Assembly: GCA_964016885.1 (NCBI GenBank)
Contig: OZ024741.1
Location: 324,322,001-324,386,000 of the forward strand
Reading direction: 5' to 3'
Source of the DNA: Eledone cirrhosa
Taxonomy: Eukaryota
DNA: 64,000 nucleotides
Position numbers and translations under genes: made by a program. Under the pieces are notes generated by a model, which worked only from the letters and a program-made list of their open reading frames with translations, had not been told where the DNA came from and did not search any database. This document shows positions 1-980 of the stretch, piece by piece (the first letter of the stretch is position 1; every line of letters begins with the position of its first letter).

Positions 1-980
1 GTCGCAGACGAGAGAGAGAGAAAAAAGATTCATACCGGCTTGGCCAAGTGTCCGCGAGAAAAGGATTACGGACAGGTCAAACGAGAAGAAAGGGGAGGAG
101 GAGAGGTAATGACAGAGAGTGAGTGAGTGAAAGGTGAGGAAGAGGCTAACAGAGAGAGAGAGACTGCTAGAAAGAGTAAAGACACAAAGAACGAAACAGA
201 CTGGTGGCAGCGGAGGAAAAAATATATGTGTAAATATGATAATAATGGAGCTGCGGCGCTGCAAATGGGTTACATATGAAAAAGTTTGTCCTCATCTGAT
301 GAGGACAAACTTTTTCATATGTAACCCATTTGCAGCGCCGCAGCTCCATTATTATCATATTTACACATATATTTTTTCCTCCGCTGCCACCAGTCTGTTT
401 CGTTCTTTGTGTCTTTACTCTTTCTAGCAGTCTCTCTCTCTCTGTTAGCCTCTTCCTCACCTTTCACTCACTCACTCTCTGTCATTACCTCTCCTCCTCC
501 CCTTTCTTCTCGTTTGACCTGTCCGTAATCCTTTTCTCGCGGACACTTGGCCAAGCCGGTATGAATCTTTTTTCTCTCTCTCTCGTCTGCGACTTCACAG
601 AACTTATGTTTACCGAATTCGCAGACCAGATCCCTTCTTCCTCCCGTTAGACCTGTGCGAAATTCCTTCCTTGCTCACATTTCAACCAGGTTTGATGGTC
701 TTTATTCTCTCGTTCACGATTCCACCGAATTTATATTCATAGAAATCTGGGACTTGTTTCTTCTTCATCACTTTCTGCTGCTTAAACCATTTTGTCTGTT
801 TACCCTAGCGTCCCCTTTATTTACGTGTCCCAACGACTTATTTTAGCCGTTGCTCGCACCAACCTGAGGTATATGGCCTTTAATGCGACGAAATGCTTAC
901 GACGGTTGGAAGGCCACTGATGAGGACAAACTTTTTCATATGTAACCCATTTGCAGCGCCGCAGCTCCATTATTATCATA
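1..980 (+). mobile_element. Family A non-coding retrozyme-like element: about 1.1 units (296-980, period 621) preceded by an inverted copy (1-296, running off the window)
   Basis: 1-296 is the reverse complement of 298-593 (centre T297). 917-980 directly repeats 296-359. The element ends in (TA)n. A second locus at 57651-58622 ends at the same point. Confidence 0.8.
826..928 (+). ncRNA. Candidate non-circularly permuted hammerhead ribozyme with kink-turn (copy 1), predicted cut after A873
   Basis: GGUAU-A (868-873); stem I UGGCCUU 874-880/AAGGCCA 910-916; CUGAUGA 917-923; GAAA 890-893; stem III AUGCU 893-897/GGUAU 868-872; k-turn UAC-GA 898-902/GA 866-867; CCAACC 859-864/GGUUGG 904-909. Confidence 0.65.

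Follow-up and report, generated by a model that had tools for sequence, protein, structure and literature searches.

A candidate hammerhead ribozyme of type SGC order, with a kink-turn in stem III, in a high-copy retrozyme-like repeat of Eledone cirrhosa

RESULTS

The stretch of DNA analyzed here (the window) comprises 64,000 nucleotides from the 3.0-Gb genome of Eledone cirrhosa (contig OZ024741.1, forward strand) and is AT-rich and dense in microsatellites. It harbors two insertions of a dispersed, non-coding tandem repeat with a unit of 621 bp (positions 296 to 916), each unit carrying one copy of a candidate self-cleaving ribozyme. The first insertion consists of a forward arm (296 to 980, + strand), i.e., one unit plus the start of the next, which stops at the distal of two fixed 3' ends before a (TA)n tract at 978 to 1062, and of an inverted head-to-head arm (1 to 295, - strand), which is identical at 295 of 295 bases and extends about 200 bp past the window edge. 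The second insertion (57649 to 58631, + strand) is 5' truncated, contains 1.6 units with a period of 625 bp, and belongs to another subfamily. The longest reading frame over the 621-bp unit had no match in Pfam.

The region from 1 to 593 forms a perfect 295-bp palindrome whose center, C296/U297, is where a CUGAUGA begins, and the end of its inverted arm falls at a position that is not standard (unit position 502, L001). A recent rearrangement or an assembly artifact is possible for this fold-back. A few other 5' junctions lie near CUGAUGA as well (L006, L039, L046, L054, and L058).

The hammerhead core strands at positions 826 to 928 are arranged in the order site, GAAA, and CUGAUGA, with a kink-turn (k-turn) within stem III. 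This scrambled order had been proposed in a first-pass annotation made from the letters alone, and all of its elements were found in place when the structure was read pair by pair. On the + strand, the 5' strand of stem III (block S, 868 to 872) ends with U16.1 and is followed by N17 (A873 of an AUA triplet), 3' of which cleavage is predicted by analogy with known hammerheads. The 5' strand of stem I (874 to 880) forms seven Watson-Crick pairs with 910 to 916 and leads via a UAA linker (881 to 883) to the stem II side, with three nucleotides as in type SGC. The 3' strand of helix c (884 to 888) and N11.1 (C889) follow, and then block G (890 to 897), which combines the GAAA core strand (890 to 893) with the 3' strand of stem III. 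Stem III (868 to 872/893 to 897) contains G.U pairs at 868.897 and 870.895; U897 is a variant peculiar to this copy, the majority base being C. Block C (917 to 924) comprises CUGAUGA (917 to 923) and N10.1 (G924), and stem II is the single pair C889-G924.

The remaining helices involve the 5' leader. Helix d, the NC arm of the k-turn, pairs 859 to 864 with 904 to 909, and its 3' strand is continuous with that of stem I (904 to 916). Helix c extends stem II through its 5' strand at 854 to 858 (partner 884 to 888), helix a joins 826 to 829 with 925 to 928, and hairpin b (831 to 852) is the fourth arm of the junction above stem II. The k-turn described in the first-pass annotation, with a UAC bulge and tandem G.A/A.G pairs, was read at 865 to 867 and 898 to 903: the non-bulged strand supplies 3n (U865), 2n (G866), and 1n (A867), and the bulged strand supplies L1 to L3 (UAC, 898 to 900), 1b (G901), 2b (A902), and 3b (C903), giving the pairs G901.A867, A902.G866, and C903.U865.

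Two further copies of the ribozyme lie in the second insertion on the + strand, copy 2 at 57838 to 57941 (site after A57885, GAAA at 57902) and copy 3 at 58463 to 58566 (site after A58510, GAAA at 58527). Helix d has one mismatch in copy 2, and helix a is damaged in copy 3. Both have U11.1-A10.1 as the stem II pair and a C-G pair closing the k-turn, as stated in the first-pass annotation.

A flexible descriptor (core order site-GAAA-CUGANGA, at least 5 pairs in stem I, at least 4 in stem III, a k-turn, and at least 4 pairs in helix d) found copies 1 and 3 of the window and had no match in 48 Mb of first-order Markov sequence, one half modeled on the window and the other on the repeat unit. With a core-only descriptor, all three copies were found, with two matches in the 48-Mb null. 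Searches of Rfam yielded no family at E ≤ 10 for positions 700 to 975 and no hammerhead or other relevant family among the 150 of 224 matches listed, all of which were unrelated and of low score. The proposed structure is absent from the single-sequence minimum free energy (MFE) fold (z = -1.36), as expected, because it is a pseudoknot. Two other structures were considered and rejected: a conventional type I, II, or III hammerhead across the tandem junction, as no GAAA is placed after CUGAUGA as needed, and the MFE helix 843 to 852/898 to 907 as a conserved switch, as it is 88.5% paired but mainly through G.U and its covariation is not in excess (199/500).

The order of the strands corresponds to a published arrangement. 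Eckert 2023 divided the hammerhead into blocks S, G, and C and showed that type SGC cleaves (PMC10085705). The topology is therefore not new, as the first-pass annotation suspected in pointing to natural non-circularly permuted hammerheads. The motif shares with the SGC ribozymes described there (HRIMA-1 and SGC variants) the block order, the full catalytic core, and the linker of about 3 nt between stem I and the stem II side. As described in that account, stem II of published SGC ribozymes comprises several pairs linking blocks G and C, whereas stem II here is one base pair or absent, and a helix joins the far sides of stems I and II, whereas here these strands pair with the 5' leader (helices d and a). 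The published examples come from metatranscriptomes only (PMC10085705), while the motif here is genomic and high-copy, with stem III running through a k-turn.

The descriptor given for type SGC requires CGAAA/CUGAUGAG and at least two further stem II pairs (PMC10085705); its stem II condition gave one match on the window and loci, which is not a copy of the motif. The words "k-turn" and "kink" occur 0 times in the text and supplement of PMC10085705. By this comparison of text and descriptor, to which the HRIMA-1 alignments could add relatives, the motif works like a type SGC hammerhead and falls outside the published SGC families by two tested features.

For covariation analysis, 24 intact representatives were picked by hand, the genome contributing 22 and a metagenome 2. 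The sequences are interrelated, and GAAA, GA, and CUGANGA are fixed by the search pattern. This fixed-register alignment is without two copies of a subfamily that has an extra base in helix d, both of which are included in a 26-row alignment. Helices c, d, III, I, and II had 93.2% of cells paired, compared with 30 to 45% in slid controls, and 17 of 24 pairs showed two-sided changes, with none of 500 shuffles reaching these values on any measure. Kinship among the sequences raises the covariation scores; the pair-count measures, for which high values are rare without structure, still exceeded all shuffles. The covariation among genomic copies by which the annotated fold was to be judged is thus present.

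Two-sided changes occurred at three of five pairs in helix c, five of six in helix d (96.5% paired), six of seven in stem I (the seventh being open in 11/24), and two of five in stem III. In hairpin b, four of seven pairs changed on both sides, as did two of four in helix a (85.6% of cells paired). Taken together, hairpin b and helix a had 27 two-sided cells, a number reached in 0/500 shuffles, while their pair count was reached in 34/500. All proposed helices, including the extra helices c and a and hairpin b of the first-pass annotation, hence covary across diverged subfamilies. Unaided, RNAalifold recovered hairpin b, helix d, and stem III with the asymmetric loop. The terminal pairs at the c/d/I junction are open in 11/24 and 9/24 sequences.

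The one-pair stem II is U-A in 10, U.G in 7, A-U in 2, C-G in 2, and of another kind in 3 of the 24 sequences, so that the 10.1-11.1 pair is formed in 21/24 representatives; it is also formed in 55/60 copies picked by their 3' half. Among 60 copies chosen by the 3'-half pattern only, the whole structure was completed upstream in 45 and the non-bulged k-turn strand was found in 48; failures were mostly truncations, inversions, or point changes. U16.1-A15.1 was present in 24/24 representatives, and UH in 56/60 copies unselected for UH. N17 was A in 19 sequences, C in 5, and G in none, and N7 was U in 19, C in 4, and G in 1 (n = 24), which is exactly the variation that hammerhead chemistry permits. 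The linker reads UAA in 23/24. Strand lengths are tightly held, N17 to G12 spanning 16 nt and the NC arm 9 steps, in the repeat and in a LINE family described below (H1) alike. In a subfamily represented by L406, L414, and L418, an additional U stands between helix d and the k-turn, and the tail that follows CUGAUGA is longer.

The G and A on the non-bulged strand of the k-turn are invariant in 24/24 sequences, and 3b.3n is U.U in 10/24. C at 3b or G at 3n, found in 11/24 representatives, predicts folding of the k-turn without protein. K-turns with C at 3b can fold in Mg2+ alone (PMC4382518), and a need for an L7Ae/15.5K-family binder, as entertained in the first-pass annotation, is disfavored for the window copy, in which 3b.3n is C.U. 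The 3-nt bulge, the G.A and A.G pairs, and the C and NC helices are shared with Kt-7, box C/D, and U4 k-turns (PMC4382518); here, the k-turn is placed in a hammerhead stem III, and ion-induced folding is predicted for it by the sequence rule for 3b = C.

Pattern searches of the genome gave 1,276 matches (control, 3) plus 15,811 in other subfamilies (control, 37). The resulting number of about 17,000 refers to matches to the 3' half, not to insertions, and the two counts overlap slightly. Tandem periods were mostly 445 to 531 and 620 to 640 bp.

The insertions share a characteristic architecture. Counted by eye and leaving out duplicates and segments cut by a locus edge, 65/71 segments terminate at either of two fixed 3' sites that precede (TA)n, the proximal one in 19 cases and the distal one in 46; 3' ends further upstream are under-sampled, because the loci were chosen for containing positions 820 to 935. 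The 5' ends of the retrozyme copies are scattered. In head-to-head pairs, one fixed site was found on each arm in 12/18 cases (counted by eye). Near the predicted cut, 392 5' ends fell in 870 to 874, 320 in 876 to 880, and about 180 in 861 to 865, the last figure being derived from 357 matches, of which about half of the 100 listed were intact subfamilies. There is no pile-up of 5' ends at the predicted cleavage site among retrozyme copies, a comparison confounded by (TA)n microhomology, and the cDNAs span the scissile bond in nearly all copies. Both observations fit a circular template and equally an uncleaved transcript.

Penelope elements are recognized by partial tandems and by truncated arms in inverted orientation, and further by a tail on one side and (TA)n targets (PMC8557442). 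An anole Penelope was shown to use two internal reverse transcriptase (RT) start sites and to prime on both strands (PMC11167929). Neptune-type Penelope elements thus resemble the repeat in their partial tandems, inverted 5'-truncated arms, (TA)n targets, and a tail between two RT start sites (PMC8557442, PMC11167929). A terminal UUUUUCAU motif is common to the retrozyme and Penelope. Furthermore, in two of about 109 distinct places examined (L239 and L240), the retrozyme is fused 5' to 5' with truncated Penelope open reading frames (ORFs), with no (TA)n between them. These head-to-head chimeras, in which a Neptune-type Penelope is joined with a retrozyme copy (L283/L240 and L239), have the appearance of a single insertion for which two different RNAs were primed. 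At L343 (2610 to 2786), a retrozyme fragment of 69% identity is joined in reverse to a 3'-truncated Penelope, in an orientation unlike that of the other chimeras.

In the Penelope partner, a YIDD RT motif is accompanied by a GIY-YIG domain (Pfam E = 0.0034, below the cut-off). Its family, with 28,276 candidates, the best 150 of which are 94 to 100% identical, is very young and abundant. The examined members (L325 to L354) carry an ordinary minimal type I hammerhead, not type SGC, and their 3' region is long and rich in C; no protein is encoded by the repeat. Some of these Penelope copies keep open frames of 700 to 1,000 codons. No Penelope parent with an SGC ribozyme was found among 30 loci of the one family searched, and the repeat showed no pLTR homology with that family. 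At the nucleotide level, the 621-bp unit is not homologous to the examined Penelope family or to the 3' ends of the LINE families H1 and H2, so that no parent element was found. RT ORFs of the window (33.5 to 36.7 kb and 51.4 to 53.8 kb) were considered as partners and rejected as other LINEs: they are two fragmented non-LTR retrotransposons with RVT_1 on the - strand (33548 to 36698 and 51404 to 53840), the second with C2H2 zinc fingers after the RT.

The same fold occurs at the 3' ends of LINEs with a restriction-like endonuclease (RLE). A pattern scan of metagenomes identified the structure in 2 of 119 loci among the matches listed (L093 and L205), both from one assembly. In L093, of which only the endonuclease end is present, the fold lies downstream of an RLE frame. 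This frame (L093, 219 to 640) overlaps the ribozyme leader and stops at the UGA of the k-turn; because it ends inside the ribozyme, the 5' half of the latter could be unfolded when translation terminates. A genome search with the L093 protein gave 30 loci, classified by eye as 20 of a family H1, 8 of a family H2, one of a decayed third family, and one without the motif. The strict descriptor matched 7/30 of these RLE loci but no single H2 copy among those scanned, and the H2 structure fits only as the majority sequence of 18 copies. In the H1 and H2 loci, found by protein search, the core strands CUGANGA and GAAA are present independently of the search pattern. Stem III is 6 bp long in H1 and H2, their sites read GUA or GUU, and their helix sequences are wholly different; all catalytic positions are kept in both majority sequences, with every helix rewritten. 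The k-turn of H1 has A.A at 2b.2n by our own assignment.

As a further REARRANGEMENT, the 10.1-11.1 pair, which forms directly in the retrozyme, cannot form in L093, L205, H1, and H2 (C.C or U.C). N10.1 begins helix a in L093, L205, and H1, and a G of the leader can pair with C11.1 in L205, H1, and H2. The junction appears shifted by one pair, in which case the leader would supply the canonical G10.1-C11.1 pair. If so, this would break the rule under which CUGANGA makes up a single block together with the pairs next to it.

H1 and H2 are low-copy and decayed, with 335 matches in the LINE-type register versus 197 in the control. Among 10 H1 5' regions, 5 loci keep the start of the 5' untranslated region (UTR), 4 of these directly behind their own 3' end in head-to-tail arrangement; the upstream H1 3' pieces begin 41, 24, at least 88, and at least 88 nt before the predicted cut. 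Motifs of a single ORF with an RT, a CCHC knuckle, and a C-terminal RLE were seen in H1 and H2, and a close homologue (P0002) has RVT_1 and zf-RVT in Pfam. The H1 protein is 71 to 74% identical to several fish RT-RLE proteins, 55% identical to AAN12398.1 (Tetraodon), and 51% identical to BAC82598.1 (Takifugu). We take these two to be Zebulon/HEROTn and HEROFr, respectively, and on this basis H1, H2, and L093 are provisionally labeled HERO/Zebulon-like; Zebulon moves as partial tandems. Context for the HERO clade is given in PMC4640811, PMC7650587, and PMC2684134. The H1 protein resembling the fish proteins is encoded at L274 (7451 to 8539), although the composition of the genome is unlike that of a fish; horizontal transfer is possible.

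The motif is not universal in RLE LINEs, since two distant ones (L429 and L430; 30% and 25% identical) are without it at their 3' ends. These are among five LINE fragments found in prokaryote genomes, of which two include the 3' end (L429 and L430) and three are too short. The fragments (L426 to L430) are of animal-type RLE LINEs in bacterial and archaeal assemblies, i.e., two isolates and two metagenome-assembled genomes, and are most likely contamination. In viral contigs, the structure was present in 0/21 pattern loci, and protein scans detected no LINE; plasmids gave no match.

DISCUSSION

The repeat is best explained as a whole by a self-cutting SGC retrozyme that forms unit-length circles and is copied from them by a Penelope element in rolling-circle fashion, to which we assign a probability of roughly 0.78. 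Its parts differ in strength: that the hammerhead fold is real is close to certain; that it cleaves in at least the active subfamilies is highly probable; Penelope very likely is the mobilizer; and a circular template is favored, with a good deal less assurance. As a caution on cleavage, only 1/9 predicted frog retrozymes cleaved in vitro (bioRxiv 10.64898/2026.07.22.740005).

In the proposed mechanism, the 5' leader would splint the core via helices a, c, d, and III, while the k-turn would fold stem III back toward stem I and the one-pair stem II would be continued by helix c. Read-through transcripts of tandem copies would be cut after N17 in successive units, giving unit-length RNA (621 nt here) whose two ends would be held together by some 20 bp in helices a, c, d, and III. 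These ends could be ligated to a circle by RtcB or by the ribozyme itself; RtcB circularized other animal retrozyme monomers in vitro (PMC7229834). The RT/GIY-YIG protein of the Neptune-type Penelope would then nick (TA)n, priming would occur internally at the two fixed sites, which lie some 65 and 105 nt downstream of the cut, and copying round the circle would generate head-to-head arms and partial tandems as well as random 5' truncation. The ribozyme is probably used likewise by HERO/Zebulon-like LINEs, which are the likelier source of the ribozyme module.

The weakest competitor is a chance arrangement of short motifs that was amplified by lying in a repeat. The single-sequence folding signal is indeed weak, and near-identical copies provide no independent support, but the null scan, the covariation, the copies not selected for the 5' half, and the unaided RNAalifold result all speak against it, as does the same fold in the unrelated sequence contexts of L093, H1, and H2. 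Because the helices covary, chance is already contradicted, and we consider its probability negligible. A more substantial proposal is that the fold mainly serves RT binding or priming at the 3' end, with uncleaved multimers as the template and catalysis being vestigial, very slow, or gated by protein. The lack of a 5'-end pile-up at the predicted site and the crossing of the scissile bond in nearly all copies would suit such a role. In an anole Penelope, moreover, hammerhead mutants inserted normally in vitro and cleavage required protein (PMC11167929). Yet the majority sequences of H1 and H2 retained the catalytic positions, and unselected retrozyme copies retained NUH, while every helix was rewritten, and partial tandems longer than the cut position would presumably erode without regeneration of circles or arrays. 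A mere priming structure hence seems unlikely. We judge it similarly improbable that the 621-bp repeat is a SINE-like derivative of a 3' UTR moved by the protein of a HERO-like LINE and not by Penelope. LINEs with the same fold, which also form partial tandems, lend this some appeal; however, H1 and H2 are low-copy and decayed, whereas the Penelope family is young and abundant, and the shared 3' motif, the two-ended insertions, and the two direct chimeras favor the latter.

A different question is whether the ribozyme acts as a monomer. Cleavage only as a strand-swapped dimer would be a variant of the retrozyme reading rather than an alternative to catalysis: each core would combine blocks S and G of one unit with block C and the leader of its neighbor, and the k-turns would close the ring. 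A one-pair stem II is typical of the minimal hammerheads of Penelope elements, which are reportedly active as dimers. The open terminal pairs at the c/d/I junction suggest strain, a rough length estimate indicates that the one-chain fold would be tight, and all pairings should be equally satisfied in the dimer. On the other hand, the strand lengths of 16 nt and 9 steps are tightly kept in the retrozyme and H1, LINE copies lie more than 3 kb apart, and cleavage of the published SGC RNAs was almost complete in the course of transcription (PMC10085705). We therefore lean only slightly toward the monomer, and an obligate dimer is a serious contender that falls somewhat short of even odds.

The self-cutting SGC retrozyme preferred here shares with the non-LTR retrozymes of animals non-coding tandem units measuring some hundreds of base pairs (PMC7229834; bioRxiv 10.64898/2026.07.22.740005), one hammerhead per unit, dispersed copies, and a Penelope-like link (PMC7229834). 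Those described carry type I hammerheads, identified with type I descriptors (PMC7229834; bioRxiv 10.64898/2026.07.22.740005), in contrast to the SGC order with a k-turn found here. Expression as linear and circular unit RNAs, a further mark of such retrozymes, is predicted for the present repeat. Thus, the topology is known, but the scaffold and the setting appear new. In the literature searched, SGC hammerheads were found only in Eckert 2023, with most subscription journals and Repbase Reports lying outside the coverage. The same searches returned nothing on a hammerhead with a k-turn in a retrotransposon, nothing on a hammerhead together with HERO, and no report of a ribozyme in HERO elements; an earlier note in journals outside the coverage is possible. 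Known LINE ribozymes are HDV-like or twister motifs at the 5' end, unlike the permuted hammerhead at the 3' end described here. Other permutations of the hammerhead are mentioned, by citation only, in a 2026 paper (PMC13725137).

Taken further, the motif might represent a retrotransposon-specific subclass of hammerheads in which the leader is part of stem II and a k-turn closes the fold, a general 3' feature of one branch of HERO/Zebulon LINEs across animals including fish that serves replication through circular RNA and was captured by a Penelope-driven retrozyme to reach about 17,000 copies. This wider reading is tentative, and we would not put it at even odds. If true, the subclass would break the three-block rule of hammerhead permutations, and these LINEs would replicate by rolling-circle reverse transcription of a circular RNA. 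The partial-tandem insertions of RLE LINEs would be accounted for by a 3'-terminal RNA that cleaves and clamps itself, and a 3' ribozyme would suggest circular templates in some LINEs, which is directly testable. RLE LINEs are under development for gene insertion.

Non-circularly permuted hammerheads of SGC order were described from metatranscriptomes only and, in that account, from no known organism's genome (PMC10085705). An SGC hammerhead with a biological job would now be present, in very many copies, in the genome of an animal, which would show that standard hammerhead searches overlook a whole class. The Penelope clade Naiad is said to lack canonical hammerheads (PMC8557442), and clades of this type might hide similar permuted ones. 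With a k-turn in series with the catalytic core, the motif would also be a natural candidate for a protein-switchable ribozyme.

Two other repeat features of the window were noted. A separate dispersed repeat of about 190 to 210 bp, negative in the descriptor scan, occurs in tandem and inverted copies (27303 to 27987, 8737 to 8923, 13819 to 14005, 44357 to 44541, 44830 to 45018, and others). Adjoining the second retrozyme insertion, a long imperfect palindrome lies between (TA)n runs at 58680 to 58830.
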